Shown: positions 1 through 14,558 of the stretch, one piece after another
Numbering within the stretch: the stretch's first letter is position 1
How the letters are laid out: each line of letters starts with the position of its first letter
Notes under the pieces: model-generated
What the model was told of the DNA's origin: nothing
Database searches by the model: none
The model's input: only the letters and a program-made list of their open reading frames with translations
Source of the DNA: a virus
IMG/VR virus record: IMGVR_UViG_3300010167_000008
Span: 1-32,394 of that record
DNA: 32,394 nt
Direction: 5' to 3' (one strand)
Translations under genes and position numbers: made by a program

Positions 1-123
1 CAACAATGCCTGCAAAGTCTTTTATTACTTTCCCCAAATTTGGAAACGTGTCGCTCGTGATTAACACATCGCCACCGCTGCCATGACTTGCGATTGCAAG
101 GAAACGCCACATGTGCGCAAGTG
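1..123. repeat. Terminal overlap, copy 1 (identical to 32272..32394); marks circular closure, unique genome length 32,271 bp
   Basis: Direct comparison: the 123 nt caacaatgcc...gtgcgcaagtg occur at both window ends and lie inside the terminase large-subunit reading frame. Confidence 0.95.
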
Positions 124-223
124 TCTTTCCCGAACGCCGCCCGCCGCGAAGTATAATGACGGGCTCCCGTGTGGTTGCCTTGAAGAAATCGATGTAAACT
201 TGGTCGGGGCGGAGTAGTTGCAT
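1..223 (-). CDS. terL: Terminase large subunit, 5' part of the gene (ATG at 223..221); continues across the circular junction into 31352..32394
   Basis: Reverse reading from 223 gives MQLLRPDQVYIDFFKATTREPVIILRGGRRSGKTLAH then MWRFLAIASHGSGGDV, in frame with the 31352..32383 ORF; Walker A GGRRSGKT encoded at about 122..148. Confidence 0.85.
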   Translation of the reverse strand, partial: MQLLRPDQVYIDFFKATTREPVIILRGGRRSGKTLAHMWRFLAIASHGSGGDVLITSDTFPNLGKVIKDFAGIV

Positions 224-228
224 GGCGG

Positions 229-636
229 TTATTCAAGGTCGGTTAATGGTACAATGTCCGTGTCGTCCGTCTGAATGACTGTCGTGCTCTTCAACGTGTC
301 GCGGTCGCGTTGTGTCCCGTAACGCTTGATAAATAGTGCAAACTCCGCAGCCCCCGCCCGTGCTGTGTCCAACTTGTTGAACAGTTTTAAGTCAGCCCGC
401 TCAACGAATGTCGCACGGTTGTCGTCAAGTGCCTTGCGTATGGCGTAGAAATCATTGTGGCATTGAACAGTCCTTGCGGTGCAATGGTAGTGCTCGCCAA
501 CCTGATAAGTGCAGGTGTATTCGTTTTCTTGAATAACTTCTATAACCTCTTGAACGTCAATAGGTAACTTTGCGGGTTGCCCTCGTTTGAGCTGATTTGT
601 AGGTGGTTGCGTTGTGATTGGTTTGTCGGGTCTCAT
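229..636 (-). CDS. Putative terminase small subunit (135 aa)
   Basis: ORF immediately upstream of terL (5-nt gap) and first gene after a long intergenic region; assigned by position and size only, no motif recognised. Confidence 0.45.
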   Translation of the reverse strand: MRPDKPITTQPPTNQLKRGQPAKLPIDVQEVIEVIQENEYTCTYQVGEHYHCTARTVQCHNDFYAIRKALDDNRATFVERADLKLFNKLDTARAGAAEFALFIKRYGTQRDRDTLKSTTVIQTDDTDIVPLTDLE

Positions 637-776
637 ACTAAACTATTTCAAAGCGCGAAAGTAAGGAAAGTTTCTTTTGCCGCTGCCTGTCAGCACGGTC
701 AGCGGGTTATCTATTTGATACAGAAAGGAATAAAGTTTTTGCGGGTTATTAAACCAACGGAAACGCTATAAAGAAG

Positions 777-1003
777 CCATATAATAACAATATAACAATA
801 CATTTAACAATATAATATAAAGAACAACAACTATTTATGTTTGATTATTATATTATTATATAGATCTATTGATATGTATATATATTGATGTTGTTTTTTT
901 GAGAATTTTTTTTGTTTCTCTTTATGCAAACTTATAACTTTTAACAATCGCCCGAAACGCGCTATGTGTTAATACTTTCCGCACTTAAAAACGTTGTTAA
1001 ATG
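777..1003. repeat. AT-rich intergenic element, copy A (227 bp), homologous to 14299..14525; bounded by the inverted repeat CATTTAACAA (801..810) / TTGTTAAATG (994..1003)
   Basis: Blocks shared with copy B: CCATATAATA, CATTTAACAATA, TTCTCTTTATGCA (916..928), TTAACAATCGC (941..951), ACGTTGTTAAATG (991..1003); three TAACAATA copies at 785, 793 and 805. Confidence 0.8.
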
Positions 1004-1095
1004 GTTTTATTCGTATAACAATTTTATATCTGTGTGGTTGTGTGGTTGTTGCGGGCTGATTTTTGGCAGTTTTCGGCTCGAAACTCGATGGAACG

Positions 1096-1130
1096 ACAAA
1101 AAAGGCACGAGAATTGCTTCCCGTACCTTG
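1096..1130 (-). terminator. Rho-independent terminator after the lysis cassette
   Basis: Minus-sense AAGGUACG (1129..1122) pairs with CGUGCCUU (1109..1102), with one G-U pair, followed by a U run (A run 1098..1103 on plus); starts 18 nt after the stop at 1148. Confidence 0.6.
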
Positions 1131-1147
1131 TTAAATTTTAACATTCA

Positions 1148-1696
1148 TTAACGTTTGTAAAATTTGTAAAGATATGCCACCCGTGCCTCGTTGTTCAGTA
1201 CGTCGTAACCGATGAGGAAATTGTTCCCTTTGATTTCGAACCCGATTTGAGGTGCGAGCGATATTTTTGCAGATTTGATATTGTAACCAACCTCCGCGCC
1301 TGCCAAAAGTCCCCATTTTTGATAATTGTGGTTAGTGCGGTCGATGGTGTGTGTAATTGTAGTATTTTTTTCTCGATACTTGAGACTGTCAAGCCTGCAA
1401 TCGTAACCCGTAATCCATGCCTGATAATTTGTGTCAGAGTAATAGTACTCTGAAATAGGTAACGGAACGGACAATGTGGTGTCGTTTGCAGTAATGGTAT
1501 AGATAACAGTATCAACAACTCGCTCAATGTGAAACACGGGTGTAATAATGCTCACAACTGAATAATCAACGATTGTGTCGCGTGTTTCACGGACTTCAAC
1601 CCTGTCAATATACGATACTTTTTGGTTACATGATTTAGCAAAGAAAACTAATGCCAACGCCACCGCTGCAATTATGATATAATCTTTGTACGTCAT
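1148..1696 (-). CDS. Putative lipoprotein of the lysis cassette (182 aa; spanin-like or outer-membrane associated)
   Basis: N-terminal signal peptide with a lipobox-like ALVFFAKS|C; beta-rich C-terminal part; ATGA overlap with the upstream ORF at 1693..1696. Confidence 0.45.
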   Translation of the reverse strand: MTYKDYIIIAAVALALVFFAKSCNQKVSYIDRVEVRETRDTIVDYSVVSIITPVFHIERVVDTVIYTITANDTTLSVPLPISEYYYSDTNYQAWITGYDCRLDSLKYREKNTTITHTIDRTNHNYQKWGLLAGAEVGYNIKSAKISLAPQIGFEIKGNNFLIGYDVLNNEARVAYLYKFYKR

Positions 1697-1956
1697 TGTT
1701 CGGGTGGTGGTTTAAGTTGCTCGTTTCCGAGATTTGCGAATTCTCTTTCCATTGTATCGAGTTCGTTACGAACTTGTATGTTCATGTAACCAACAAGTTC
1801 GGGCGATACGTTAATCACACGGATTTTCCCTTTTGGCGATGTAAGAGTAAGAACGGATTGTTCTTTCATAGGTTCTTCAAAAATTTTCAGATAATGCTGA
1901 TAAGCGGTTATCATGAAATCTAATTGGTTGGCTCTTGCGAGCAATTCTTGTGTCAT
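1693..1956 (-). CDS. Hypothetical protein (87 aa) in the lysis cassette
   Basis: Internal ATG at 1956..1954 (MTQELLARANQ...) lies 11 nt after the endolysin stop; the longer track ORF (to 2052) would overlap the endolysin. Confidence 0.5.
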   Translation of the reverse strand: MTQELLARANQLDFMITAYQHYLKIFEEPMKEQSVLTLTSPKGKIRVINVSPELVGYMNIQVRNELDTMEREFANLGNEQLKPPPEQ

Positions 1957-1967
1957 AGGTAATAAAA

Positions 1968-2330
1968 TTAATAGAGCCAAACTACGTTCTGAGGTAACGT
2001 CTTTCCGCTTCCGATGTGAATAAAATCTTTGTGGATTCCGATACGATTGCATCCCTCAGCGAGAGCAGCCTTGATGATTCCCATCTTGGATGTTCCGTCT
2101 TTTGCAATAATATCTGTACCTGTTCGATTCGGATGGTCGCCACTTCCTGAGCGACCTTTCGATTTTTCCCATGCCACAGAACGAAACGCGCTTGTAAGTA
2201 TCATCGCCTTCCCGTAACGCGCACGGATACGGTCAAGGAGATTCATGTGGTCTTGTGTCATGTCTTGCAATGAACACGGGGGAGAGCATTTCTTAAATTC
2301 CTCCTCCTTGAAATACTTTGACGTTATCAT
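1968..2330 (-). CDS. Endolysin, peptidase M15A-like (zinc D-Ala-D-Ala carboxypeptidase fold), 120 aa
   Basis: MITSKYFKEEEFKKC..., TSAFRS, H-x6-D (GDHPNRTGTDI) and FIHIG match the M15A metal-ligand pattern; ATG at 2330 forms an ATGA overlap with the stop of the upstream ORF. Confidence 0.7.
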   Translation of the reverse strand: MITSKYFKEEEFKKCSPPCSLQDMTQDHMNLLDRIRARYGKAMILTSAFRSVAWEKSKGRSGSGDHPNRTGTDIIAKDGTSKMGIIKAALAEGCNRIGIHKDFIHIGSGKTLPQNVVWLY

Positions 2331-2761
2331 GGCTTGATAATTGAAAAAGTGATGTAATAGTTTCCGTCGTCGTCTTTGGTATGGCTGCAATAGTCGCTCA
2401 TTGCTATCTGATTGACTGCCTTTTGTACACCTAACTTCCGAAAATAGTTGGCTTCTTTTTGTGGTGTCTTGAACTTGCTGGTCTTCTTCAATGGGAAGCA
2501 CTTGCGCTCAATTGGGATAATAATACGGGCAAATTGGTCTTTCAATTTCTGATACTGCTCCTTGAAATTCTGCTCGGCGTTGTCAAGTTCTTGTTTGTGC
2601 CGTTCGGCGTCCGTTTGTTTTTGTCCGAGATAAATCTTGCGGAGGTCAATGCCAACGCTCTCGGTTACGCGCCGCGTGGTTACTTTGGCGCAAATCATCC
2701 ACGCAATTATGAAGCCCGCGAGGATGAATAGGGGGGCGGTGATAATTAAGATAATACTCAT
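2327..2761 (-). CDS. Membrane-anchored coiled-coil protein (144 aa), holin or i-spanin candidate
   Basis: N-terminal TM segment IILIITAPLFILAGFIIAWMICA followed by a charged helical region; first gene of the lysis cassette. Confidence 0.5.
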   Translation of the reverse strand: MSIILIITAPLFILAGFIIAWMICAKVTTRRVTESVGIDLRKIYLGQKQTDAERHKQELDNAEQNFKEQYQKLKDQFARIIIPIERKCFPLKKTSKFKTPQKEANYFRKLGVQKAVNQIAMSDYCSHTKDDDGNYYITFSIIKP

Positions 2762-2778
2762 GATGTAAATAATTAAAT

Positions 2779-2786
2779 GTTAATAA
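2779..2786 (-). promoter_or_regulatory. TTATTAAC motif (mRNA sense), 17 nt upstream of the ATG at 2761
   Basis: GTTAATAA on plus; one of eight similarly placed sites. Confidence 0.35.
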
Positions 2787-2956
2787 TTTACGGTCTTATA
2801 TGACACGCATTTGTGATTTTCTTTTGGATTGACATTTCCGTTGCGTGAGTTTGCACGTTGGTTCTGTCTCGAATTTGTTCTTTTTTCTATCAAAAAGGTA
2901 AAGGCATTTTTTCGGTTGGGACATTTTGTTTGTGTTTATTCAGTGGATTAAATGGC

Positions 2957-3022
2957 AGGGGACAGTCCGTTTGGCAGGCACGATTTAAATTAACCGCGCA
3001 CACGTCTCGGCGCGTGTCCCCT
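2957..3022 (-). other. GC-rich structured element between the methyltransferase gene and the lysis cassette
   Basis: 8-bp stem aggggaca (2957..2964) / tgtcccct (3015..3022), plus an adjacent 5-bp stem cgcgc (2995..2999) / gcgcg (3010..3014). Confidence 0.35.
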
Positions 3023-3056
3023 TCCCTCATAGTAATTAAAAAGCGGCAACGTTCAA

Positions 3057-4742
3057 TCATGGTTTTTTGAAGATTAAAACGTTCTGATGCACTCTGACGA
3101 CTTTGCTCGTCTTCATGCAGTTGTTGGCTCGCATTCCCGCGTTGCCAAATTTATTAACGAGGATAATCTCGTTGTAAAACTTGCAGCCCGCGTCCGTGAA
3201 CGCTCGGATAGTGTCGGGGACGAACCCATAGTAATTCCCGTCCTTGTCGCGAAATTCGCTAACTACAAAGGCAGCAAACCCGCCACGTTTGAGCACACCG
3301 CAAGACTTTTCTATTATCTGTCGGTACACCTGCATAAACGCGGGATATTTCATCGTGGATAGGTCTTCTGGAATGTCGCTGTACACTTCGAGGTCTCCAT
3401 ACGGAGGGCAACTCATAACCATATCAAACTCCGCTCCTTCGAGCATATCAAGGATTTGATTGCTGTCGCCGATAATCCAATTCGGCATCTTGATTTCAGG
3501 AGCCGCAACGGGGGTGCGCATGGTGGGTCGAATGCCAACTATCCACAGTAGGTCAGCGGGTTGTAGAAAGTCAATACACTTCGCCTCGTAGTATGGGTCG
3601 AGTTGAATTCCATTGTAAGTAGTAACCATTGCAGCGGAATGATAATCGCTACCATCGACGTCGACGATAGTAACCATGTCCCTCCAATTTGGCGGCGCGT
3701 ACTTATCAAGTCGCACCTCAGGGTCAGCACCAACGCGCACCGCAACAACGGGGATGTCCCGCATAGTGTCGCGCAACCCCCAAAGTACACCCGCAAGGGT
3801 CATGCCGCTTCCGCATGGCATTACAATCCGATTGACTTCGGGTGGAATGTTCTGAACTTGTTGGCGGTTCTGAGTAACAGCCTCTTCGCACTCCATACCA
3901 AAGGGGACGTCAAGATAATTCTCGGCGGCGGCAAATTCTCGGCTCCGTGCAATAATGACGGAGTTATAACCTTCCTTGTGCTGAATTATCCTCGCGCCGC
4001 TGTCTTGCGCCGCAATTAGTTCGTCGGATAACTGACCTTCGGGCGCGTGTACCACAACGGGAATGCCAAAGGCTTTTCCAATTTTGGCGAGGATATTGAT
4101 TTGCGGGCTGCTTCTGCTCCCCGCCGTTGTTATCCCCTGACCGACCGTGCGGTTCTTGATAACGAATTGAGAAGCCGTGCGAGCCTTCCCGCCAACCGCG
4201 CCACCGATTTCGAACAAGTCGTCCCGCTTGAAATAGACGTCGTCTATCAGTTGCACGGGGGTTAATTCGTTCGGGTTGCTGATGATTTGCGGTTTGGCGT
4301 TGGCAGGTGATTTGAATATTTCGCGGGCTTGCTCGTAATTGCTCTCGACCTGCTCCTTGCGGAGTTCAATGCCCGTGTAATCATAACCGAGTTTGTTGGC
4401 AACAATTCCTCGAACGGAGCCTCCTGCAAATGGATCAAGAATAGTCCCTCCCGTTGGCGCAAACCACTTGTATAACACTTCGCAGAGTGTCGCGCTGAAT
4501 ATACTTATATTAGATTTGAATTGTGTGCCAAATCTTGCATTATTCCTATTAGCGCCGCACCGTTCATTTCTTCCTAATTCTGACTTGATTCCCTTGCGTA
4601 ACCATTTGCCCTCGTTTTTATTATAATCGCCCGAGCGGGTGTCAATTATGGAAAATGGGTTCAGTAGGTACTTCCCCGCGCAAGTGGTTGTCGCGTCGAC
4701 CTTGTCGCCGAATAAGTTGTAATTTTTATTTTGTTCTGTCAT
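3057..4742 (-). CDS. Fusion protein (561 aa): permuted N6/N4 DNA amino-methyltransferase with an inserted ACC-deaminase/D-cysteine-desulfhydrase-like PLP enzyme domain (aa ~158-407, nt ~3522..4271)
   Basis: MTase motif I ILDPFAGGSVRGIVANKLGYDYTGIEL (aa 101-127) and motif IV FDMVMSCPPYGDLEVYSD (aa 439-456). Insert carries TPVQ, FKRDDL, GGAVGGKAR (K186), ITTAGSRSSPQ, PCGSGMTLAGVLWGL and GIQLDPYYEAKC. ATGA overlap with the helicase gene. Confidence 0.8.
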   Translation of the reverse strand: MTEQNKNYNLFGDKVDATTTCAGKYLLNPFSIIDTRSGDYNKNEGKWLRKGIKSELGRNERCGANRNNARFGTQFKSNISIFSATLCEVLYKWFAPTGGTILDPFAGGSVRGIVANKLGYDYTGIELRKEQVESNYEQAREIFKSPANAKPQIISNPNELTPVQLIDDVYFKRDDLFEIGGAVGGKARTASQFVIKNRTVGQGITTAGSRSSPQINILAKIGKAFGIPVVVHAPEGQLSDELIAAQDSGARIIQHKEGYNSVIIARSREFAAAENYLDVPFGMECEEAVTQNRQQVQNIPPEVNRIVMPCGSGMTLAGVLWGLRDTMRDIPVVAVRVGADPEVRLDKYAPPNWRDMVTIVDVDGSDYHSAAMVTTYNGIQLDPYYEAKCIDFLQPADLLWIVGIRPTMRTPVAAPEIKMPNWIIGDSNQILDMLEGAEFDMVMSCPPYGDLEVYSDIPEDLSTMKYPAFMQVYRQIIEKSCGVLKRGGFAAFVVSEFRDKDGNYYGFVPDTIRAFTDAGCKFYNEIILVNKFGNAGMRANNCMKTSKVVRVHQNVLIFKKP

Positions 4743-6178
4743 ACTTTTTTTGATTTAGTTGGTAGTGAAAAAGGGTCGAGTTCGCCGAAGCAAAAGTCAA
4801 GGTCGGGCATCGCCCAATCGAGACCGACATAGCAATAACAGTTTTCGAAGCCCTTGCGGTTTACGTTCTTTTTGACAACGCCCTGCCTTGATAACTCTTG
4901 GTCGATGAGTTTACGGGTTGCAATCGGCAACACCCCAAAGGTGCTCCGCAACTTGTCGTTCACGTCTTTAACCGCAAGTATTGCCAACGGGTTATCCTTG
5001 TCAATCATAAAGATTTTCATATACTCCGAATAACTCGTTTGCACGGTTTTATCCGTTCGGTTGAGTTTGGGCTTGTAACGGAAACTTTTAATAAAATCGA
5101 CAATAATCTTGTTGCGTTCGGGTTGGAATACGTCGAGGAAGTTGGTGTTTCTGTCCCACGCAATTTCAAGCGTTTTCTCGGGACTTTCATATTCAATCAT
5201 ACGTCTAATTGTCCCGCTGTCAATATCGTTTATTACAATGGGATTATTACTGAAATACACCACACTTGCGCACACTTGCAACGTGCCGCCGTTGGTACTC
5301 AATTCACGATAAGGAACGCTCGTGCCACTTGTAATCCTCTTGATGAGGTTGTTGTCTTTTTGGCGTTCGTTGCTTTCGTCAATCAGTATCGTCGAGGCGC
5401 GGTTCATCTTGCGTTTTTCGACGATAAAGTCGTAACCGCTGACCCGTGTGCTGAATGCCTCCTCAGTAATCTCGCAGATAAGTCCGTCAAAGATTTGGCA
5501 CATGAGAGCAACGAATGTCGATTTGCCGCTCCCGCCTTTTCCTTTGACAGATACAAAGTATTGTCCGCCCCGTGTACGTTGGAGCGATTTGCTGAACACC
5601 GAAAGGAGTTCGTAGTATTCGTCCTCATCCTTGACGCCGAAAACATTGTAACAAAGTTTCCGAAAGTTGCTCGGCGGCTCTTTGTCTTCCCAATCGAGAT
5701 TATCCACGAGTACGCTGTCAATGCAGCACACCTCGCGGCATCGCGGGGATAATGTTTCAGGTTTCAGATATCGAACGATGTACGGGTGCGGCTTGAGCCA
5801 CAACCCGAGTTCGATGTTGTCGTCGGCGTGGTTACGGAAGTGCAAATTGCGCTCGTAACCATTTGCCGCCGCCCGCTGTTCGCGGTCAATTATACGCTTG
5901 AAAATCTGGTCGATAAAGTCTTTGCAGTCTATAAGTTCCTGTCGGTCAGTGAGTATCTCTTGGATGTCGGGATACTCATGCTCTTCGGGTGTCATATTCG
6001 CCAACACCCGCCGCGCAATAAGGTAACAGACGGGGAATTGTGTACTCGATTCCTTGACCGAAATCTTATACATTACTCCCTCGTCGTTGAACCAATATTC
6101 GCCGCCATAATAGACAATGTCGTCAATCCAATACTTTCCGCGTGATGTGATATAGGTGGAAAAATCTTTGCTATCCAT
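4739..6178 (-). CDS. SF3 helicase, D5/P4-type NTPase (479 aa)
   Basis: Walker A VKGKGGSGKSTF, Walker B-like ILIDES, then LIKRITSGTSVPYRELSTNGGTLQVCASVVYFSNNP, typical of P4/D5 C-terminal helicase domains; no primase motifs recognised. Confidence 0.7.
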   Translation of the reverse strand: MDSKDFSTYITSRGKYWIDDIVYYGGEYWFNDEGVMYKISVKESSTQFPVCYLIARRVLANMTPEEHEYPDIQEILTDRQELIDCKDFIDQIFKRIIDREQRAAANGYERNLHFRNHADDNIELGLWLKPHPYIVRYLKPETLSPRCREVCCIDSVLVDNLDWEDKEPPSNFRKLCYNVFGVKDEDEYYELLSVFSKSLQRTRGGQYFVSVKGKGGSGKSTFVALMCQIFDGLICEITEEAFSTRVSGYDFIVEKRKMNRASTILIDESNERQKDNNLIKRITSGTSVPYRELSTNGGTLQVCASVVYFSNNPIVINDIDSGTIRRMIEYESPEKTLEIAWDRNTNFLDVFQPERNKIIVDFIKSFRYKPKLNRTDKTVQTSYSEYMKIFMIDKDNPLAILAVKDVNDKLRSTFGVLPIATRKLIDQELSRQGVVKKNVNRKGFENCYCYVGLDWAMPDLDFCFGELDPFSLPTKSKKV

Positions 6179-6399
6179 TATATTTCGATATAGAATTTTC
6201 CTCCTTGTTTAATTACTTTGCGCCCGCTCTTTTTTGCGCAATGAGCGTAAAAAAGTTTGTTTCCGCCCTTTACTTTTTCGATAAAATCGAACACGTTGGC
6301 AGCGGGGGACACTTCCTTGAATTCCTCCTCGCAAAGTGCAAGAAATTTCAACGCCTCCTCGCGTTGTATTTGATTAAAAGTTTTTCGTTTTTCGTCCAT
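6178..6399 (-). CDS. Hypothetical protein (73 aa)
   Basis: ORF with TAATG stop/start overlap with the helicase gene. Confidence 0.5.
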   Translation of the reverse strand: MDEKRKTFNQIQREEALKFLALCEEEFKEVSPAANVFDFIEKVKGGNKLFYAHCAKKSGRKVIKQGGKFYIEI

Positions 6400-6589
6400 A
6401 GTTCTTCCGATTTAAGATTAATGATAATATGATGACAAGGAAGCCCGTGCCAAAGGTTGACCAAAGTGGCGCGGTTATCCACAGCCAACTCCACGACACA
6501 GCGTCGAAGAGTTTCATGAGTAGAAAGCAAATGAATATCAGCAAGATAAACATGAGCGCAATGGTTGATGATGTTGTAGGTTCTTTCAT
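6374..6589 (-). CDS. Small membrane protein (71 aa, 2-3 TM segments)
   Basis: Hydrophobic stretches IALMFILLIFICFLLM and FGTGFLVIILSLIL; overlaps the next ORF by 26 nt. Confidence 0.5.
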   Translation of the reverse strand: MKEPTTSSTIALMFILLIFICFLLMKLFDAVSWSWLWITAPLWSTFGTGFLVIILSLILNRKNYGRKTKNF

Positions 6590-6675
6590 AGTAAAATTTT
6601 ATTTGTAAGTAATTGATTATCGGCACGATGTACGATCTTTTTAAACTCGTATGGTAGTGCCATTTTAAAGGAAAG

Positions 6676-6708
6676 TGCGACAAAATGCAAGAAAAGTGCC
6701 TTGTCGCA
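6676..6708 (-). terminator. Candidate intrinsic terminator or attenuator between the MBL gene and the membrane-protein gene
   Basis: 8-bp stem tgcgacaa (6676..6683) / ttgtcgca (6701..6708) with a 17-nt loop, followed in minus sense by CUUUCCUUUAAAAU. Confidence 0.35.
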
Positions 6709-6726
6709 AACGTTAATATTTACAAG

Positions 6727-7410
6727 TCAGACGATTATCGTTGTGCCGCGAACGGCAACGCGAACCCGATTGAAGCCCGCACGAGCGAACTTCGCGAGTA
6801 TCATTCCCGCCCGTGCGCCGCTTTCTGATTTATGCAGTGTTATAATTTTGGTGGTCTTGTTGTGCGCAATTCTGCTCACATAGTCGACACACTTGTCGTC
6901 TGAACAATGGTTGCGCAACCGCTCTTTTTTATCCTCGTCGAGGTCTTCAAAAATGAAGTTGTTGTAACTGCATTCAATCATAATCGCGTCGAAATTGTAG
7001 TGGCTGAGTTGGTCGATGACCTCGTCGTCAATGTGATAAAAGTCGGTTGCGTATAATATGGTCTTCTTGCATTTGGTTTGTATTATAAAGCCGTTGCAAG
7101 TTGAGGCGTTGTCGCGCAAGATTTTCGCATGATAATCGTGATGCACGGGGAAGGAGTACACGTCGAATTCCGTTACCTGCTTTCCGAAGAAAATCTCGTA
7201 TTGCTTTGAAACGTTAAAAACGAAGTGGTCGGAGTGTCGGTGGCTGACAATGAAGCCGCAATATTCTTTCGCCTCCTTTGTGTTGGCGATGACGGAGGAG
7301 TAGTTGAGCCACGCCTCAACGACGAGGCAGTTGCCCGCCTCGTCGATAAGAGCATAACTGTTTCCACTGCTACCTGTCCCGAGTACTTTAATTGTCGCCA
7401 TTGATGTCAA
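6727..7410 (-). CDS. Metallo-beta-lactamase-fold hydrolase (227 aa), probable nuclease of the recombination module
   Basis: IKVLGTGSSGNS near the N-terminus and an HxHxDH motif (VSHRHSDH). Confidence 0.7.
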   Translation of the reverse strand: MTSMATIKVLGTGSSGNSYALIDEAGNCLVVEAWLNYSSVIANTKEAKEYCGFIVSHRHSDHFVFNVSKQYEIFFGKQVTEFDVYSFPVHHDYHAKILRDNASTCNGFIIQTKCKKTILYATDFYHIDDEVIDQLSHYNFDAIMIECSYNNFIFEDLDEDKKERLRNHCSDDKCVDYVSRIAHNKTTKIITLHKSESGARAGMILAKFARAGFNRVRVAVRGTTIIV

Positions 7411-7651
7411 ATTTTAAAAGAAAACGTTTCTTTAAGTTTGAATTACAAACAGTTGTAGATTCTAAAATAGACTTTTCAAATGCTTTTATTGCTTTTTCTA
7501 TTATTTCTTCTTCGGAGAGTTCAACTGCTTTAATTGCATCTTTTTTAAGAATCGTTTCGATTGTGATTTTTTCATTGCTTAATATGTTTCCATTATAAGA
7601 AACAAATACTATCGCATTATCGATAAATTTACTTGCGTTTTTACTTTGCAT
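7388..7651 (-). CDS. Hypothetical protein (87 aa)
   Basis: ORF whose start shares one base with the RecT-like stop; AT-rich. Confidence 0.45.
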   Translation of the reverse strand: MQSKNASKFIDNAIVFVSYNGNILSNEKITIETILKKDAIKAVELSEEEIIEKAIKAFEKSILESTTVCNSNLKKRFLLKFDINGDN

Positions 7652-8577
7652 TAATCGAATGGGTGTTCTTCGGGTTCGGTTGTTACGGGTTCGGGTTCGG
7701 ATTTGAGCCCTGCAATAATTGCCTCTTTTTTTGGCGGCGGTGGTGTGTCCGCTTGCGCGGGTGGGTGTTGCGTTTCTTTCTTCGGTTCGGATACTTTGGT
7801 TAATACCTTGTTATCTTTGACCTCAACGTATTCAACGTCAATCGGTTTGCCTTCGTTTTCTTGCGAATAACCTGCAAACTCGTTCGGGAATGCTCGCTCA
7901 AACGCTTGCGCGAGTGCCACCTTGCAAATCATGAACGCGGGGCGCGTGAGCCATATCTCGTTCACTTCCTTGTCGGTGTACTTTCTAAGTTTGTCGTCCC
8001 AGTTGGTATTCTTTGCATTGTTGAAGCGGTTTTCCTCGAAAGATACTTCGCTGATTTCGTGGTGTTCCCAATCCTTGCGATATACCTCCGCCCATCCTGC
8101 AATGAGGATTTCCTTTGGCAGCAACCACTCGCCCGCACGACGAACGAGTTCGCCTTTGTCGGTTACAACGATGATTCCGTGTTTGCAGCCATTGTAGTTC
8201 GGGCTCATGGCAGCGCGGCGCATGGCAACCTCGTAGGATGGCATTAACACCACTTTTCCGCCTTTCTTTGTAATGGATACATCGCGGCTTGCGGGGTTGA
8301 GACCGAGAATTTGCGCGTCGATAAATACCTGCAATAATTCGCCATAATCCCAACAATTTTCGAAGTCTTTCTTCGCTTGGTGTGGCAACTCTGCCTCGCA
8401 GGATTTCCCCATATTTTTCAGAAAATCCTCCTTTGATGTAATGTCTTTCAAGCCAAAGAAGGCTCGCATGGTTATTCCGCATCTCTCCTTACAAAGTGCG
8501 GCGGCTTCCTGAGCCGTTGCAAGTGCAATCGCCTCTTGCATGGTTACTTTTTTGATTGCTTTGGTTTCGTCACTCAT
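7651..8577 (-). CDS. RecT/Bet-like single-strand annealing protein (308 aa)
   Basis: LGLNPASRDVSITKKGGKVVLMPSYEVAMRRA and WLTRPAFMICKVALAQAFERAFPNEF resemble the RecT-family core; Pro/Glu-rich acidic C-terminal tail ending EEHPFD. Confidence 0.6.
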   Translation of the reverse strand: MSDETKAIKKVTMQEAIALATAQEAAALCKERCGITMRAFFGLKDITSKEDFLKNMGKSCEAELPHQAKKDFENCWDYGELLQVFIDAQILGLNPASRDVSITKKGGKVVLMPSYEVAMRRAAMSPNYNGCKHGIIVVTDKGELVRRAGEWLLPKEILIAGWAEVYRKDWEHHEISEVSFEENRFNNAKNTNWDDKLRKYTDKEVNEIWLTRPAFMICKVALAQAFERAFPNEFAGYSQENEGKPIDVEYVEVKDNKVLTKVSEPKKETQHPPAQADTPPPPKKEAIIAGLKSEPEPVTTEPEEHPFD

Positions 8578-8746
8578 TTTCTTTTAAATTAAGTTGATAA
8601 TTTGTTTGTTGCAATAATGCTTCGAGGGCTTCTTTTTGGTAGTAACGGCGATTCTGGTCAATGGTTGCCCGCCATATTTCGTCGTCCAATTTTTTAATCA
8701 TCTCCTCGAGCGATTTCCGTTTGTGTTCATCGAGATTTGTTGCCAT
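8570..8746 (-). CDS. Small coiled-coil protein (58 aa; below the ORF-track cutoff)
   Basis: Hand translation gives MATNLDEHKRKSLEEMIKKLDDEIWRATIDQNRRYYQKEALEALLQQTNYQLNLKENE; its stop overlaps the RecT-like start (ATGAGTGA). Confidence 0.45.
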   Translation of the reverse strand: MATNLDEHKRKSLEEMIKKLDDEIWRATIDQNRRYYQKEALEALLQQTNYQLNLKENE

Positions 8747-8758
8747 ACTATAACGGTT

Positions 8759-8890
8759 TTAAAAGTGCAACGGATCCGCGAAACGGTTGGTAGGTTCGCT
8801 CGCAATGTAACATATTGAGCCGTGTTTGCGTTTGAATTTCAGCCACCTCTTTTGTTCTCGCAGGTGGTCGCGATAGTCTTCAAAGGTCAT
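8759..8890 (-). CDS. Small hypothetical protein (43 aa; alternative start at 8920)
   Basis: MTFEDYRDHLREQKRWLKFKRKHGSICYIASEPTNRFADPLHF; the longer track ORF (to 9205) would overlap 8880..9305 in another frame. Confidence 0.3.
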   Translation of the reverse strand: MTFEDYRDHLREQKRWLKFKRKHGSICYIASEPTNRFADPLHF

Positions 8891-9305
8891 TCCTTTGGGA
8901 CGGGAGGATAAAATAGTCATCGGGATTAAATTTTGGTTTGTACTTCTTTTCGTAAAAATCTTTAACTTTTTGGCACTTTTCAGCGTCTTGGAAGTTGTTG
9001 GTGTACTTCTTTGCCTTTCTGAATAGATCGTGGAACTCATGCAAGTTTTCGGACATTTCTTGCAGCCCTTTCCGTATGGCAGCCCATCGGGATAATTCGG
9101 CGAGCATCCGCTCATTTTCCATCTGAGCAATCTCGGGCGTGATATACTTTGTCTTCCGTTGTTGCGCCGCGTGTGCCGTCTGCAATTCACACCTGCCATT
9201 TGCACGGCATTCCCCGCAAGGTGTGAAGCAAGGGTGTTGCGAGTAGTTTGGGTTGCGGGGAAACACTACTCGTTCCATAGGATAATTCGCCGCTTGATTA
9301 GTCAT
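8880..9305 (-). CDS. Hypothetical protein with an N-terminal Cys cluster (141 aa)
   Basis: CFTPCGECRANGRC; ATGA overlap with the stop of the Rad50-like gene. Confidence 0.5.
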   Translation of the reverse strand: MTNQAANYPMERVVFPRNPNYSQHPCFTPCGECRANGRCELQTAHAAQQRKTKYITPEIAQMENERMLAELSRWAAIRKGLQEMSENLHEFHDLFRKAKKYTNNFQDAEKCQKVKDFYEKKYKPKFNPDDYFILPSQRNDL

Positions 9306-11233
9306 GACTCAATAATTAACGGGGAATTTTCTTTAACCCGTAACTCCACGAGGCACGGCAACAACGGCATATTCTTTTTCTCGCAGTTTTCGGCATTGTC
9401 GAAAAAGATAGGAAGGGCAACGGCGAAATGGTCTTGAAATCGTTGGCAGAGCATTGATAGTTTCGCATTTGCGCGGCTTGTATTTGGATTTTCAAACCCG
9501 TCAATCTTCATAATGGCAACCTCTTCGAAGCCCTCTTGCGTTATAAGTTTACGGAACAAAGTGATTTCAATTCCATCGGGAAGAAACTTGGAAATAGCGT
9601 CCTGACAATCAGTGCGATAATCGTTCTCAGCCTGCTCAATGGCAATCATTTGTCGCTCGTTCTCAATTAACGCCTTGCGCACCATTTCCGAACGGGCATC
9701 ATTTTTCGCAATCTGCTCGTCCGCCGTTGCATACCCATACGCAATCTCATCAGCCTTTTTGTCTTCGGATTGTAACTGCTCGATTTCGAGTTTGGCTGCT
9801 TGGATTTTTTCGCTGTTATTCACACCCTTGAAATCCGTGATGATTTTGGCTTGTAACTCCGCAATCCTCTTCGCCTTGTCGTCTTCCCACTTGCAAAGGT
9901 TGGCAGCGTTTTCGTCGTTGATAACCTGATTGTCGTGCGAAAACTGTTCACGGGCTTTCGCGTTGGTTTCGTTAATGGCAGCGTTACGGGCGGCGATTTC
10001 CTCGTTCTCCTTCTTTATTGCTTCGTTCTGCAATTCGATTGACTCGTTAAAAGTCTTGTCAAGGTTGCGCAATTCCGAACCTTGCTTTGTAACCGCGTCA
10101 ATCTCGGCAACAATGGCGGCTTTCCGCTCTTCAAGATTTTGCACCGATTTGTCAATCTCTTCCAATTTGGCAGCAATTTTCAGAGCGGCGTCAGCCTTGC
10201 TCGTATTGCGTTGAATTTCGGCGCAATCGGCATTCGTGCAGTACGGGCAAACCATACAGATGAAGTCCTCTTTATCGGCGGCGGCGGAGGTTACACTTGC
10301 AACCGTTTCTCGCTGTTTATTCCAATATGCAATCTTTTCATCGATGGCTTCGCGTTCTGCTACCTTCCCGCGATAAGTTACCAACAACCGCTCAATTTCG
10401 GGGTTCTTCTTGAGTTCAAGGTACATTTTAGGAGCCTCAATTTCGGCGGGCGTGAAAACGAGTTGCGGTTTGGGTGTAAACTTTTCGCCGTGAATATCTT
10501 GTATCTTTTCGCGGAGGCTTTGATTTTCCGCTAAAACATCGCTTGACACGGCGGCACGTTCTTCTTCATACATTTGCTCGATTTCTTTTTGAAGTGCGCT
10601 GATTCGGGCTGTATTGCGGTCGGTTTTTGGTTTTTCAGCGAAAGTCTCCCGCAAACTCTTTGATTTTATGTTCAACTCCTCCATTTCAGCCTTCTGCTCG
10701 TTGATTTCCTTGCGCAACACCGCTTTATTCGGAAGTTCGCGAATATAGTCAATCAGGTTCACGTTCACAATGGAGGAAATTATCTTGAGTTTATCCTTTT
10801 GCGCAAGGCTGATGAAATATTGCGGGTTTGTGAAAAGAGCAAGGTCGTAACCCTTGCAAGTATCCGCGATAGCGGCATTGTAGTCCGCCAACTTTACGGG
10901 CGTTTCGTTAAGAAAATATTCGCAGTTCAATTCGGTTTTTAACTTTTCGTCGTCCGTGCCGCGCTCGCGGGAATATAGTGGCTTTGCAGCCTTGCGGAAA
11001 ATCATGTCGTCCGTGTGGAAGGCAACTTCGGCAAATCGGTTGCCGTCCCTGTCTTCGTGGTTGTACACGTTGGACGATGTGAATTCTTTCATGTCGATAG
11101 AGCGTTGGTTCATACACCATAAAAAAGCATCTAAAATGGTGGTTTTTCCGCTCCCGTTTTCGCCGCTCACGGTGGCGGGGAATGCCACCGTGAGGTCGTG
11201 GTGTTTCTTGAATCTTTTAATTTCGATTTTCAT
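9302..11233 (-). CDS. Rad50/SbcC-like SMC-type ATPase with a zinc hook (643 aa)
   Basis: Walker A GENGSGKTT, long coiled-coil middle, mid-protein CPYC hook (aa 329-332, nt ~10238..10249), C-terminal Walker B-like LPIFFDNAE. Confidence 0.7.
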   Translation of the reverse strand: MKIEIKRFKKHHDLTVAFPATVSGENGSGKTTILDAFLWCMNQRSIDMKEFTSSNVYNHEDRDGNRFAEVAFHTDDMIFRKAAKPLYSRERGTDDEKLKTELNCEYFLNETPVKLADYNAAIADTCKGYDLALFTNPQYFISLAQKDKLKIISSIVNVNLIDYIRELPNKAVLRKEINEQKAEMEELNIKSKSLRETFAEKPKTDRNTARISALQKEIEQMYEEERAAVSSDVLAENQSLREKIQDIHGEKFTPKPQLVFTPAEIEAPKMYLELKKNPEIERLLVTYRGKVAEREAIDEKIAYWNKQRETVASVTSAAADKEDFICMVCPYCTNADCAEIQRNTSKADAALKIAAKLEEIDKSVQNLEERKAAIVAEIDAVTKQGSELRNLDKTFNESIELQNEAIKKENEEIAARNAAINETNAKAREQFSHDNQVINDENAANLCKWEDDKAKRIAELQAKIITDFKGVNNSEKIQAAKLEIEQLQSEDKKADEIAYGYATADEQIAKNDARSEMVRKALIENERQMIAIEQAENDYRTDCQDAISKFLPDGIEITLFRKLITQEGFEEVAIMKIDGFENPNTSRANAKLSMLCQRFQDHFAVALPIFFDNAENCEKKNMPLLPCLVELRVKENSPLIIES

Positions 11234-11315
11234 TGATTACTTTGGTGTTAAGATATTTTTGATACAAGTTGTAAAAAAATGCAGCACGGCGGATTTGAGA
11301 TTGATATTCTTCAAT

Positions 11316-11474
11316 TTATTTTTCTGCCTCTGCCTTGCGTTCCTCAGCGGAGGATAACATAGTTTTATAATCCCTGATTTTCTTTTGGGAATGGTACATG
11401 GCGTCGCTTATGAAAGCACTTTCTTCGGCTTCAATCTTATAGATGAGAGCGTCTAATGGTTCGGGTTGTTTCAT
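11316..11474 (-). CDS. Small hypothetical protein (52 aa; below the ORF-track cutoff)
   Basis: Hand translation gives MKQPEPLDALIYKIEAEESAFISDAMYHSQKKIRDYKTMLSSAEERKAEAEK; starts 1 nt after the stop of 11476..11733. Confidence 0.35.
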   Translation of the reverse strand: MKQPEPLDALIYKIEAEESAFISDAMYHSQKKIRDYKTMLSSAEERKAEAEK

Positions 11475-11475
11475 G

Positions 11476-11733
11476 TTAGTCAATGTTAGCGATTATGTCT
11501 TCTTTATTTTCGTATAAGTTCCACTCGTTAGCGGTTGATTCGTGTTTACAACCGTTGCGGTTGTCGGCGGTTATTACCTCATAGAGTACATGAGTATCAA
11601 TTTCCTCATTTCCGTCTCTTTGGCTTCGATTTTGGGTTTGGGTTTGGATTTTTTTCACAGTAACGCGAATAATACTGCAATGGTCTATTAAATAAACCTC
11701 TTGTCCGATGTTGAATTTTGTTTTAATGTCCAT
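11476..11733 (-). CDS. Hypothetical protein (85 aa)
   Basis: ORF on the coding strand within the early operon. Confidence 0.5.
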   Translation of the reverse strand: MDIKTKFNIGQEVYLIDHCSIIRVTVKKIQTQTQNRSQRDGNEEIDTHVLYEVITADNRNGCKHESTANEWNLYENKEDIIANID

Positions 11734-11754
11734 AATGTAATGAAATTTAATTTG

Positions 11755-12339
11755 TTAAACGTTATAATCTGAAATTGCAAGCGGCATAATAACCGCGATT
11801 GAATTTTGCCAACGGGGTTCGTCGGATGTGCAAACAATCGGAACTTTATCCCCTTTGAAGTTGTAGATGATTTTCTTGTGCGCAAAGGCGTCAATCAACG
11901 AGCGATAAATCTCTGAGTTGATTGCAACCCGTGTAACGCCATTTTCGCAACCCTCTTGAGGTTCGAGTTCTTTGGCATTTTTTATAAATTCGTCAATGTC
12001 GGGAAATTTCAGTTCGTCGCCCGAATAAAAGGCAAAGAATGCTCCTTTGATTCCTTTTGCGTTGGTACATTGAATTCCGTCCTCTTGGACGATAATAGAA
12101 TGACATCCGAGCATTGCTGCATAACTTTCGCCATGCAAGATTTTCCCGTCAAGGAGTGTAATTTGCTCCTCGCTGAGGTTGCAGATGTCAGTCAGGTAGT
12201 TTTTAATCGCGCAATGTGCGTCAGTTGCATACGCAAACCCACCCTTGAAATGAATGTAATTCATTGCGGGGCGAATTTCGTCTTTGAGACACGCCTTGTG
12301 CATTTTCACAGACGAGTAGAAGTTGATTTTTTTTGCCAT
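11755..12339 (-). CDS. Sliding-clamp (DnaN)-like domain protein (194 aa)
   Basis: EIRPAMNYIHFKGGFAYATDAHCAI resembles the DnaN domain-I RP...TD pattern; KFPDIDEFI resembles the clamp FPDY..VIP linker; C-terminal IAVIMPLAI. Weak, by eye. Confidence 0.4.
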   Translation of the reverse strand: MAKKINFYSSVKMHKACLKDEIRPAMNYIHFKGGFAYATDAHCAIKNYLTDICNLSEEQITLLDGKILHGESYAAMLGCHSIIVQEDGIQCTNAKGIKGAFFAFYSGDELKFPDIDEFIKNAKELEPQEGCENGVTRVAINSEIYRSLIDAFAHKKIIYNFKGDKVPIVCTSDEPRWQNSIAVIMPLAISDYNV

Positions 12340-12354
12340 AATGATAAAATTTTG

Positions 12355-12362
12355 GTTAATAG
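12355..12362 (-). promoter_or_regulatory. CTATTAAC motif (variant of TTATTAAC), 15 nt upstream of the ATG at 12339
   Basis: GTTAATAG on plus. Confidence 0.3.
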
Positions 12363-12366
12363 TTAA

Positions 12367-13242
12367 TTATAAGGAGTTTACATAATCCTTCAATTCTTGG
12401 ATATAGGTAACGCGCTCGCGTTCTTCTGTGTCTTTTAGTTCAAAAAACAAGTTTTCGTCAAACACGCTGTTAATTGCTTCCTCACACATGGATTGTATTT
12501 TTTCTGGGCGCACGGCGTCGAGTTCCACTTGTCCCAACCCATCCCAATTCGCTGTCCTGCTATCCGTAACCTTTGCAGGCGCGGGCGGCAACTTCCACTC
12601 GATAACTTGGTGCTCCATGAGCGAAATCCGTCTCACGTCCACGTCCACTCCGAGTTTCATGAGATTATCCTTGATTGCGCGTGGTATGTCCTCCCCACTT
12701 GGGTCATAGTCGCCAAAGTACAATATCACGGGTGTTTTTCCATGTCTCACGGCACGTTTGAAACGGCGGGATGCTTCATATAGAAACGTCAAAGAAGGAT
12801 AACCCTTGCAAGCCCCCAACCCGACGTCGTGTTTACTGCACACCTTGTCAAATACTCCCTCGAGTGCCTTTTTTTCAATAAATACCTCAGGATAAATCGG
12901 TTGATTTTCCCAACGGTTTTTTCTGTAAACCGTCATCCACAATCCGACCTGACGTTGTCCTTCGTCAATCTTGTCAGATAACACGGTTTCGTCGGCGTTG
13001 GTGTCGTTTGCCATTTCTCTATCCCTGTCGCAGAATGTATCAAAATCAACAAGCCCGTCCCACCTTGCAACGCCCATCGCCGCAACGACGCGGTCGTAGT
13101 GTTGTTGTGTGTTGGTCATGCCGATAGATACGAGTTGGTAGTGGAGTGCTCTGATTGTGAGCACTCCTTTTTCGTAGCGTTTGATAATCTCTAGGCTGTT
13201 CTCAATTATCCATTGTCTTGTAAATTGGTCTCTTGCTGCCAT
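12367..13242 (-). CDS. Spo11/Topoisomerase VI-A-like protein (5Y-CAP + Toprim), 291 aa
   Basis: R31-A-L-H-Y35 matches the R-x3-Y catalytic Tyr motif; Toprim Glu in VFIEKKALEGVF; KGYPS; DxD in ILYFGDYDPSGEDI; C-terminal GQVELDAV. Confidence 0.65.
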   Translation of the reverse strand: MAARDQFTRQWIIENSLEIIKRYEKGVLTIRALHYQLVSIGMTNTQQHYDRVVAAMGVARWDGLVDFDTFCDRDREMANDTNADETVLSDKIDEGQRQVGLWMTVYRKNRWENQPIYPEVFIEKKALEGVFDKVCSKHDVGLGACKGYPSLTFLYEASRRFKRAVRHGKTPVILYFGDYDPSGEDIPRAIKDNLMKLGVDVDVRRISLMEHQVIEWKLPPAPAKVTDSRTANWDGLGQVELDAVRPEKIQSMCEEAINSVFDENLFFELKDTEERERVTYIQELKDYVNSL

Positions 13243-13251
13243 AACTACCTC

Positions 13252-13686: not shown

Positions 13687-13705
13687 AATGTACTGAAATT
13701 TTTTG

Positions 13706-13725
13706 GTTAATAATGTTGTTAATAA
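13706..13725 (-). promoter_or_regulatory. Two tandem TTATTAAC motifs (13706..13713 and 13718..13725) upstream of the ATG at 13686
   Basis: GTTAATAA twice on plus; the proximal copy is 19 nt from the ATG. Confidence 0.35.
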
Positions 13726-13740
13726 ATATACTATATAAGT

Positions 13741-13783
13741 GGCGGGCGGCGGTTGCGAGCCGCCATTGTGTTAAACGCCCGCC
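13741..13783 (-). other. GC-rich stem-loop with alternative pairings in the early-operon leader
   Basis: ggcgggcg (13741..13748) pairs with cgcccgcc (13776..13783); ggcgg (13748..13752) can instead pair with ccgcc (13760..13764). Confidence 0.45.
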
Positions 13784-14525: not shown

Positions 14526-14535
14526 TTAAATGAAC

Positions 14536-14558
14536 AAAAAAAAGCGGCACGGAGCCGC
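14536..14558 (-). terminator. Rho-independent terminator ending the late/accessory transcription unit
   Basis: Stem gcggc (14544..14548) / gccgc (14554..14558) with a 5-nt loop, followed in minus sense by eight U (A run 14536..14543); lies ~30 nt after the stop at 14591. Confidence 0.65.

Follow-up and report, generated by a model that had tools for sequence, protein, structure and literature searches.

A phage DNA methyltransferase-like protein interrupted by a pyridoxal phosphate enzyme domain: a candidate for aminopropylation of DNA

Introduction

Why would a phage interrupt a DNA methyltransferase (MTase) with a complete pyridoxal 5'-phosphate (PLP) enzyme? This question is raised by one gene of the phage genome recorded in IMG/VR as IMGVR_UViG_3300010167_000008, which was analysed over its whole length of 32,394 nucleotides (1..32394, hereafter the window). 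The gene, located at 3057..4742 on the minus strand, encodes a 561-amino-acid (aa) protein, referred to below as the fusion protein, and all residue numbers are those of this product. A preliminary description of the sequence had proposed that the protein carries out post-replicative hypermodification of DNA rather than plain methylation, and the comparative evidence gathered here supports that general idea. We estimate that there is about an even chance that this single bifunctional protein aminopropylates DNA in two steps, taken in either order.

A single reading frame encodes an MTase-like fold split by a PLP domain

The fusion gene is one unbroken open reading frame (ORF) with an ATG start that overlaps, as ATGA, the stop codon of an upstream 479-aa ORF (4739..6178) encoding a DUF5906/superfamily 3 (SF3) helicase. 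The identical protein is encoded on three independently assembled contigs (ENA, Logan and JGI; 32,301-32,411 bp) that carry the same genes from different start points. Since three independent assemblies yield the same protein, the ORF is neither a frameshift nor an assembly artefact, an outcome for which the preliminary description had allowed. The differing start points indicate a complete small phage genome that is circular, or else circularly permuted or terminally redundant. The fusion gene comprises the following features.

3057..4742 (-): complete MTase-like ORF with an inserted PLP domain; its start codon overlaps the stop of the upstream SF3-helicase gene (ATGA), which couples their translation
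4563..4673 (-): N-terminal conserved element, aa 24-60, consensus 'PPFSVLD..G.WQ.RKR.W..LGI.SE.GR', common to the whole clade of MTases with a CPPY motif IV
4299..4520 (-): MTase-like fold half 1, aa 75-148, with motif X, motif I and motif II; the S-adenosylmethionine (SAM or AdoMet)-binding half
4407..4436 (-): motif I DPFAGGSVRG, aa 103-112, Gly/Arg type
4377..4379 (-): Y122 codon; Y122, G108 and R111 correspond to D/F/F (for G108, R111 and Y122) in the SAM-decarboxylase-linked sister subclade
3522..4271 (-): the insert, a complete PLP domain of fold type II, aa 158-407, assigned to the ViI gp226 / M6 gp52 family (PHROG 3650)
4185..4187 (-): codon of K186, the predicted internal-aldimine (Schiff-base) lysine, aligned to gp226 K92, gp52 K36 and the lysine of 1j0a
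4101..4109 (-): S212-P213-Q214 signature, present in 120 of 120 fusions; 'GSPQ' in ViI gp226, S-N-H in 1j0a
3801..3812 (-): G311-S312-G313-M314, phosphate-binding glycine loop of the PLP domain
3579..3590 (-): Y385-E386-A387-K388 block, of which Y385 and K388 are invariant throughout the family of phage PLP decarboxylases
3060..3491 (-): MTase-like fold half 2, aa 418-561, with strand 3 (WIIGDS), motif IV and motifs V-VIII
3399..3413 (-): motif IV S-C-P-P-Y, aa 444-448; Cys in place of the canonical D/N/S is the clade hallmark

Both domains scored above the Pfam cut-offs, PF00291 (PALP) at aa 167-341 (E=2.3e-12, 47.3 bits for a cut-off of 35) and PF01555 (N6_N4_Mtase) in two stretches (E=2.8e-10, 41 bits for a cut-off of 26.7). 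The MTase motifs are in the permuted order I...IV: the C-terminal end of PF01555 falls on aa 82-134, and aa 424-496 align to residues 26-99, in the N-terminal part, of the beta-class MTase 2zie. The PLP domain of ~250 aa is positioned exactly at the junction of this circular permutation, where insert-less relatives have a short linker. An AlphaFold2 model built with 82 relatives showed both domains well folded, with a predicted local distance difference test score (pLDDT) of 88.2 overall and above 90 over the insert, and a predicted template modelling score (pTM) of 0.80.

The G+C content of the insert (0.531) exceeds that of the MTase halves (0.459 and 0.484) and of the genome (0.429), placing it in the top 0.9% of the genome's 750-nt windows (mean 0.427). 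Its G+C at third codon positions (0.564) is not above that of the C-terminal MTase half (0.594), so that amino-acid composition, not recent foreign origin, may account for much of the difference. These results bear out the architecture given in the preliminary description, namely an uninterrupted ORF with an ATGA overlap, permuted MTase halves split by a PLP domain where ordinary relatives have a short linker, and an insert richer in G+C than its flanks.

The inserted domain groups with phage PLP decarboxylases that act on DNA

Profile searches matched the insert to PHROG 3650 (E=2.6e-30), a family whose archetype is gp226 of Salmonella phage ViI (E=2.5e-241). In pairwise comparisons, the insert aligned with ViI gp226 (E=1e-7), with K186 on K92, and from end to end with gp52 of Pseudomonas phage M6 (E=6e-4), with K186 on K36. 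Both phage proteins have been purified as PLP-dependent decarboxylases whose substrates are already in polymeric DNA; they convert O-seryl-thymidine and C-alpha-glycinyl-thymidine to 5-NeOmdU (5-(2-aminoethoxy)methyldeoxyuridine) and 5-NedU (5-(2-aminoethyl)deoxyuridine), and K92 and K36 were named as their internal-aldimine lysines (Lee et al., NAR 2021, PMC8989533).

An 11-member family alignment showed that the insert covers this decarboxylase family from the first conserved strand to the last and keeps all seven family-invariant residues (R173, D175, K186, S312, G338, Y385 and K388). Conservation within the fusion family was counted over 120 listed fusion proteins, all of which carry K186, S212-P213-Q214, N260, G311-S312, Y385, E386 and K388. 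K186 and the glycine loop G311-S312 also align to the lysine and loop of 1j0a, a homologue of 1-aminocyclopropane-1-carboxylate (ACC) deaminase, in agreement with the Schiff-base position that the preliminary description had given to K186. Furthermore, a closer stand-alone homologue, MONT_41 of Glutamicibacter phage Montesquieu (E=1e-15), directly adjoins genes for an aGPT-Pplase2 protein and a kinase, that is, a thymidine-hypermodification cassette. Judged by sequence, the insert belongs to the family of phage DNA-acting PLP decarboxylases, and its closest functional relatives act on amino acids tethered to DNA bases.

The likeness to ViI gp226 and M6 gp52 extends over the full length of the domain, includes the aligned aldimine lysine and the family-invariant residues, and takes in phage encoding and a presumed post-replicative action; with ViI gp226 the insert also shares the SPQ signature and membership in PHROG 3650. 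Unlike the window domain, these enzymes stand alone in a pathway that involves 5-hydroxymethyldeoxyuridine (5-hmdU), a kinase and an amino-acid:DNA transferase. None of the genes of this pathway (kinase, aGPT-Pplase2 amino-acid:DNA transferase) was detected by a Pfam and PHROG scan of the ~32.4-kb genome, in which several small ORFs are unannotated. Since the window PLP domain is instead inserted in a SAM-dependent MTase-fold enzyme, the tethered amino acid would have a different origin, for which we propose SAM.

The preliminary description had placed the insert in the family of ACC deaminase and D-cysteine desulfhydrase (DcyD). Foldseek searches with the insert model returned DcyD, 1j0a, ACC deaminase and threonine deaminase as top matches (E down to 7e-12), with cysteine synthases among the structural neighbours; the best PDB matches, D-cysteine desulfhydrase and 1j0a, had a TM-score of about 0.6 normalised to target length (E about 1e-11). 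The insert has the type-II PLP fold in common with these enzymes, as well as the lysine and the glycine loop. However, it scored only 27.6 bits against TIGR01275 and 12.7 bits against TIGR01274, for NCBIfam cut-offs of 289.4 and 392, respectively, and it is ~80 residues shorter. In the ACC deaminase/DcyD family, an S-N-(H/Q) segment follows the lysine and its Asn contacts O3' of PLP; the aligned place in the insert is occupied by S212-P213-Q214. We therefore rejected this assignment in favour of ViI gp226 and M6 gp52 as the nearest functional relatives. A mobile insertion (an intein or homing element, as in the ShiLan insertion of mycobacteriophage methylases) was also rejected, because the insert is a full PLP enzyme with conserved catalytic residues that occurs stand-alone as well.

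Another stand-alone PLP homologue, of 242 aa, is encoded by Staphylococcus phage Alsa_1, a large myovirus of the Twortvirinae, ~1 kb downstream of an annotated DNA methyltransferase (L010:1915-4675). It matches both PHROG 7093, the M6 gp52 family, and PHROG 3650.

The MTase domain belongs to a clade with an unusual motif IV

The MTase domain of the fusion protein resembles the beta-class N6-adenine and N4-cytosine MTases (PF01555; TTHA0409, CcrM) in its Pfam family, in its AdoMet-binding motif I, of which D103, F105, G107 and G108 are strictly conserved among the fusions, and in the PPY of motif IV. It departs from them in the 250-aa PLP insert, in a circularly permuted motif order in place of the beta-class IV...I, and in a motif IV that reads CPPY in place of the canonical (D/N/S)-P-P-(Y/F/W). 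The view that both enzymes are catalytically intact holds for the PLP site, where the family-invariant residues are kept, and is not supported for the catalytic half of the MTase, where CPPY replaces (D/N/S)PPY. An invariant Cys in motif IV could allow covalent catalysis at pyrimidine C6 with alkylation at C5, as in C5-methyltransferases.

This Cys is present in 116 of the 120 listed fusions and in insert-less relatives. The clade is marked by '(S/T)CPPY.DLE.YS' in motif IV together with the N-terminal 'PPFSVLD..W..RK..W', an element preceded in many relatives by a ParB-N domain that the fusion protein lacks. CPPY was discarded as a marker of PLP-linked enzymes, since it is found likewise in insert-less relatives and in those linked to an AdoMet decarboxylase (AdoMetDC). 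A defence-system assignment was also discarded, as PADLOC returned nothing beyond generic Type II MTase matches.

The only relative seen with T-S-P-P-Y is encoded by Clostridium phage phiCTP1 (gp51-gp52, L022:2489-3896). Its motif I reads 'FGGEQTKG', the MTase gene is followed by an overlapping 171-aa ORF that contains 'PTGSGET', and the pair may represent a further variant of the system.

CPPY-type MTases are tied to either a PLP enzyme or a SAM decarboxylase

Members of the clade occur in four arrangements: (a) with the PLP domain inserted in the MTase; (b) as an insert-less MTase with an overlapping downstream stand-alone PLP gene, as in Microcystis phage Mae-JY30, in gp1/gp2 of Mycobacterium phage Vincenzo and in AlanGrant; (c) as an insert-less MTase with an overlapping downstream gene for a pyruvoyl SAM decarboxylase, as in Pseudomonas phage ZRG1 (PF02675, E=1.6e-23) and in gp66/gp67 of Croceibacter phage P2559S; and (d) as an MTase alone, as in Enterococcus phiFL3A and Listeria B054.

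We compared related loci, 160 in all, drawn in equal numbers (80 each) from IMG/VR and from GTDB genomes. When motif I read 'FAGD(T/S)xFG' (Asp type), an AdoMetDC gene was found immediately downstream at 45 of 46 loci, the exception ending at a contig edge. Conversely, no AdoMetDC gene followed any of the 110 loci with 'FAGGSVRG' (Gly/Arg type; Fisher p=2e-39, uncorrected for relatedness). Five of these 110 enzymes are fused to the PLP enzyme, 13 are followed by a PLP gene and 92 are solo (5 of them at loci that end at a contig edge). The listed fusions agree with this division: 114 of the 120 are of the Gly/Arg type (110 exactly AGGSVRG), 6 were missed by the motif search and none is of the Asp type. 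Furthermore, 44 of 46 AdoMetDC homologues keep the E|S self-processing motif.

Eleven alignment columns separate the AdoMetDC-linked from the PLP-linked MTase domains, including G108D (100% vs 100%), R111F and Y122F, while a column-by-column comparison of solo and PLP-linked MTase domains found no conserved column that differs. CPPY-type MTases are hence tied to either a PLP enzyme or a SAM decarboxylase in a mutually exclusive manner, with matching changes in the cofactor motif.

In the motif alignment, the Asp of the AdoMetDC-linked enzymes falls between the second and third glycines of motif I, at the Asp of the spermidine-synthase GGGDG. This Asp forms a salt bridge with the amine of decarboxylated SAM (dcSAM) in spermidine synthase and is held to repel the carboxylate of SAM, and its replacement by Ile results in a weak methyltransferase (PMC3725402). 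The sister subclade shares both this glycine-loop Asp and an adjacent AdoMetDC with the spermidine synthase and AdoMetDC system, in which an MTase fold transfers aminopropyl from dcSAM, and its sequences look like those of a dcSAM-dependent DNA aminopropyltransferase. The window enzyme differs from spermidine synthase in having Gly/Arg instead of Asp, with G108 of FAGGSVRG at the place of the acidic glycine-loop residue of dcSAM aminopropyltransferases, in the lack of an AdoMetDC gene, and in its presumed acceptor, a DNA base and not putrescine.

The P2559S AdoMetDC is among the phage enzymes shown to be bona fide by complementation of E. coli speD, in a study that interpreted phage AdoMetDC genes as polyamine auxiliary genes (PMC9992855). 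Since the P2559S genome has a single AdoMetDC homologue, the assayed enzyme must be gp67. The linkage suggests that the coupled phage speD copies feed dcSAM to a DNA aminopropyltransferase, not to polyamine synthesis. The speD genes of T4-like cyanophages are mostly without linkage to a CPPY MTase.

The cassette of two genes is widespread in phages: a ParB/CPPY 'MTase' whose motif I is of the Asp type, with an overlapping gene for a pyruvoyl AdoMetDC behind it, was present at 46 of the 80 IMG/VR loci. In P2559S, an ASCH-domain protein (gp65, L021:2222-3001) is encoded immediately upstream of the pair.

Cassette loci: L025-L104 (e.g. L025:2890-4880, L030:707-2351), L019:1015-2860, L021:3033-4674

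A proposed route to an aminopropylated base

We propose that the fusion protein would suffice by itself, as a bifunctional enzyme, for post-replicative hypermodification of phage DNA. The MTase-fold domain would bind SAM with its carboxylate intact, R111 and Y122 being candidate ligands of that carboxylate, and would flip out the target base. A SAM-derived acp (3-amino-3-carboxypropyl) unit would then be transferred, in place of methyl, onto the base, most simply onto an exocyclic amine (adenine N6 or cytosine N4, the default for PF01555). Finally, the PLP domain would bind the DNA-tethered amino acid through its alpha-amino group as an external aldimine and decarboxylate it, in the way of its homologues ViI gp226 and M6 gp52. 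The end product would be an N-(3-aminopropyl) base, positively charged and polyamine-like, that would shield phage DNA from host nucleases. From the comparisons we infer that acp or aminopropyl is transferred instead of methyl, in what order the steps occur, which atom and sequence are targeted, and what the biological role would be.

The order is suggested by the cofactor site: since Gly/Arg/Tyr are kept, carboxylated SAM would be bound and decarboxylation would come after transfer. This acp-first order takes up the larger part of the even chance that we give to two-step aminopropylation. No conserved partner gene was found, the neighbourhoods of five diverse fusion members being entirely different. 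As both a partner gene and the 5-hmdU pathway genes are lacking, the substrate of the PLP domain would come from the fused MTase domain or be a common metabolite.

A comparable logic has been proposed for the aminopropylation of microcin C, in which MccD, an MTase-fold protein, would transfer acp and MccE would act as a PLP decarboxylase, in either order (PMC10491745). The window enzyme resembles MccD and the N-terminal domain of MccE in joining MTase-fold acp transfer from SAM to PLP decarboxylation in an ambiguous order, an analogy of organisation only. It differs from them in that their substrate is a peptidyl-nucleotide phosphoramidate and that they are two separate proteins. An organisation of this type, with an MTase-fold SAM enzyme coupled to a PLP decarboxylase, was found as fusions or overlapping pairs in many lineages.

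More tentatively, the 'DNA methyltransferases' of phages and prophages that make up the CPPY clade (the ParB-MTases of the packaging locus) might not be methyltransferases at all; they could without exception be DNA acp/aminopropyl transferases that introduce a hitherto unknown, SAM-derived cationic base modification, an extension that we consider possible. The product may then be an N-(3-aminopropyl) purine or pyrimidine, with the acp base as an intermediate or as the end product of the solo enzymes. Decarboxylation may have three interchangeable solutions, namely the PLP enzyme as an inserted domain, the PLP enzyme encoded by a gene of its own, or a pyruvoyl AdoMetDC combined with a dcSAM-adapted site.

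Several observations weigh against aminopropylation by the fusion protein. The solo Gly/Arg-type enzymes form the most numerous class in the 160-locus sample, with MTase domains indistinguishable from those of PLP-linked enzymes. Annotated as adenine methylases, they may simply methylate, in which case the PLP domain would have to act on some other substrate. R111 and Y122 are predicted to bind the carboxylate from motif logic and covariation. The association between motif and partner is phylogenetically non-independent and may reflect only a few evolutionary events. The insertion point, after the strand-2 helix and before strand 3, lies across the Rossmann sheet from the cofactor pocket. Decarboxylation is not a classical activity of fold-type-II enzymes, which leaves gp226 and gp52 as the sole precedents. 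Finally, the full texts searched yielded no acp or aminopropyl DNA base, no description of an MTase-AdoMetDC cassette and no characterised member.

Alternative explanations

The two steps could proceed in the reverse order, the PLP domain making dcSAM from free SAM and the MTase fold then transferring aminopropyl like spermidine synthase. An AdoMetDC does occupy the equivalent genomic position in the sister subclade, the P2559S enzyme yields free dcSAM, the corresponding route b is still possible for MccD/MccE, and fusion would channel dcSAM to the transferase. We nevertheless consider this order improbable: all PLP-linked enzymes have Gly/Arg/Tyr at the cofactor site and none is of the Asp type, solo enzymes carry the identical site without a decarboxylase, and the characterised PLP homologues take amino acids tethered to DNA as substrates, not free SAM. 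The preliminary description had raised, as one possibility, that the PLP enzyme works on the amino-acid moiety of SAM; the reading favoured by the comparative evidence comes close to it. The other suggestion made there, beta-replacement, found no specific support. In such a reaction a PLP aminoacrylate formed from serine, O-acetylserine or cysteine would be attacked by the amine of the flipped base to give an alanyl-type adduct, with the MTase as a base-flipping scaffold. This chemistry is common among fold-type-II enzymes and cysteine synthases are among the structural neighbours of the insert, but the strict conservation of the AdoMet-binding motif I indicates that SAM is used, the sister subclade has a SAM decarboxylase in place of the PLP enzyme, which argues for decarboxylation and for chemistry that draws on SAM, and the nearest characterised homologues are decarboxylases, all of which makes beta-replacement very unlikely.

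An unlikely reading is that of an ordinary MTase that forms N6-methyladenine or N4-methylcytosine, whose PLP domain sits in a permissive loop and has a separate task, such as removal of the product inhibitor S-adenosylhomocysteine, depletion of SAM for anti-restriction or metabolic ends, or an auxiliary activity like that of ACC deaminase or a desulfhydrase. PF01555 membership above the curated threshold, the PADLOC matches, the annotation of relatives as adenine methylases, the structurally permissive insertion at the permutation junction and the DcyD- and ACC-deaminase-like top structural matches are all in its favour. It would leave unexplained why the same PLP enzyme is repeatedly retained, fused or coupled, with one MTase clade, why the sister subclade combines a coupled SAM decarboxylase with a dcSAM-type motif I, and why the entire clade has CPPY as motif IV; moreover, the insert lies below the ACC-deaminase/DcyD thresholds and far closer to the DNA-acting decarboxylases. 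We also doubt strongly that the modified target is something other than DNA, whether a small molecule such as a polyamine-like metabolite, RNA or protein. In favour of such a target, an auxiliary role in polyamine metabolism has been ascribed to phage AdoMetDC genes, and spermidine synthases share the MTase fold. However, the closest Pfam family is that of DNA N6/N4 methylases, with a PPY motif IV of the base-flipping type, many members have an N-terminal ParB DNA-binding domain, and the PLP relatives act on DNA. In addition, the gene lies between replication and packaging genes, as do the ParB-terminase loci predicted to modify DNA during packaging (PMC4738411). The window protein resembles the phage ParB-MTases of that locus in its position adjoining packaging genes and differs from them in lacking a ParB domain.

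Novelty and implications

The individual parts are already known: a phage PLP tailoring decarboxylase, an MTase-fold alkyl transferase and the MccD/MccE-like logic. Their union in one DNA-acting polypeptide, with the product predicted here, is undescribed in the literature searched. The chance is substantial that DNA modification has here a new chemical class, and that the 'DNA methylases' of an entire clade have been mis-assigned. In agreement with the preliminary description, which knew of no characterised enzyme of this architecture, the full texts searched contained no description of the fusion; an earlier in-silico mention is still possible, the 2013 ParB-terminase work having been outside the search. 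That work, a NAR paper from the Aravind group, reportedly defined the ParB-terminase loci.

If the proposal is correct, natural DNA modification would gain a class in which aminopropyl or acp is taken from the methionine side chain of SAM, so that the use of SAM as a non-methyl alkyl donor, found with tRNA, rRNA, diphthamide, microcin C and polyamines, would reach DNA. One self-sufficient gene would be enough, and this gene is very widespread among phages and prophages from many phyla, gut Bacteroidota among them; thousands of proteins annotated 'DNA methylase', 'ParB' or 'ACC deaminase' would be explained. At least a subset of phage AdoMetDC genes would have to be reinterpreted. One gene would allow site-specific writing of primary amines into DNA, with uses as a labelling handle or for resistance to restriction enzymes or CRISPR, and such DNA may sequence abnormally, which would be relevant to metagenomics.

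Distribution and annotation of the fusion and its relatives

The architecture is common. In a protein search with the fusion, 5417 proteins scored E<=0.001; PF00291 and PF01555 occur together in almost every one of the 120 listed, and many also have an N-terminal ParB domain. These matches put the metagenomic relatives of the fusion in the thousands. Both the fusion and its split two-gene versions, for which the preliminary description had suggested looking, were found in phages and metagenomes. Cultured phages with the fusion include Pseudanabaena phage Pam4 and Erythrobacter phages R6L and ZS04. Fusion genes are located between the replication and packaging modules of unrelated phage backbones. 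The ORFs downstream of 85 solo loci showed no dominant family, and their largest cluster (14 of 85) resembles the small terminase subunit, by sequence and position only.

Public annotations of the relatives are misleading. The R6L fusion (ORF1; L020) was annotated by its authors as a CcrM-like methylase with a predicted GANTC site, the PLP domain going unnoticed. The stand-alone PLP enzyme of Mae-JY30 (XAI96327; L016:3247-3957) is misannotated as 'DNA modification methylase', and Vincenzo gp2 (L002:1406-2275) is labelled 'carboxylate deaminase' or 'nucleoside deaminase'.

Prophage copies in cultured bacteria include PLP-linked ones in Nocardiopsis sp. FR4, Streptomyces sp. MspMP-M5 and Rhizobium subbaraonis JC85 (L114, L131, L145). 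Solo copies of the Gly/Arg type occur, among others, in Parabacteroides hominis NSJ-79, Bacillus velezensis NRRL B-41580, Bacteroides neonati and Sphingobacterium mizutaii DSM 11724 (among L120, L121, L126, L143, L147 and L151).

Genomic context in the window

On the minus strand, the fusion gene is preceded by genes for an SMC/AAA_23 ATPase, RecT, a metallo-beta-lactamase-fold protein and the SF3 helicase, and followed by genes for an M15 peptidase endolysin and a DUF6808 protein.

9302..11233 (-): SMC_N/AAA_23 ATPase, 643 aa
7651..8577 (-): RecT
6727..7410 (-): metallo-beta-lactamase-fold protein
4739..6178 (-): SF3 helicase (DUF5906), 479 aa

The region at 6727..13242 forms a recombination/replication module upstream of the fusion gene, which also includes a 291-aa protein matching PHROG 6247 ('DNA topoisomerase', E=2e-61) and a weak RusA-like match. 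Past the wrap-around lie genes for the large terminase, portal, S78 protease, capsid and tail, including a 978-aa tape-measure protein; the large terminase gene is apparently split by the window ends (31352..32383).

In bacterial genomes, the nearest insert-less MTase halves (55-60% identity) come almost entirely from Bacteroidota or gut-associated taxa (Alistipes, Chitinophagales, Parabacteroides, Ca. Scatosoma), a pattern that suggests a Bacteroidota host for this phage.

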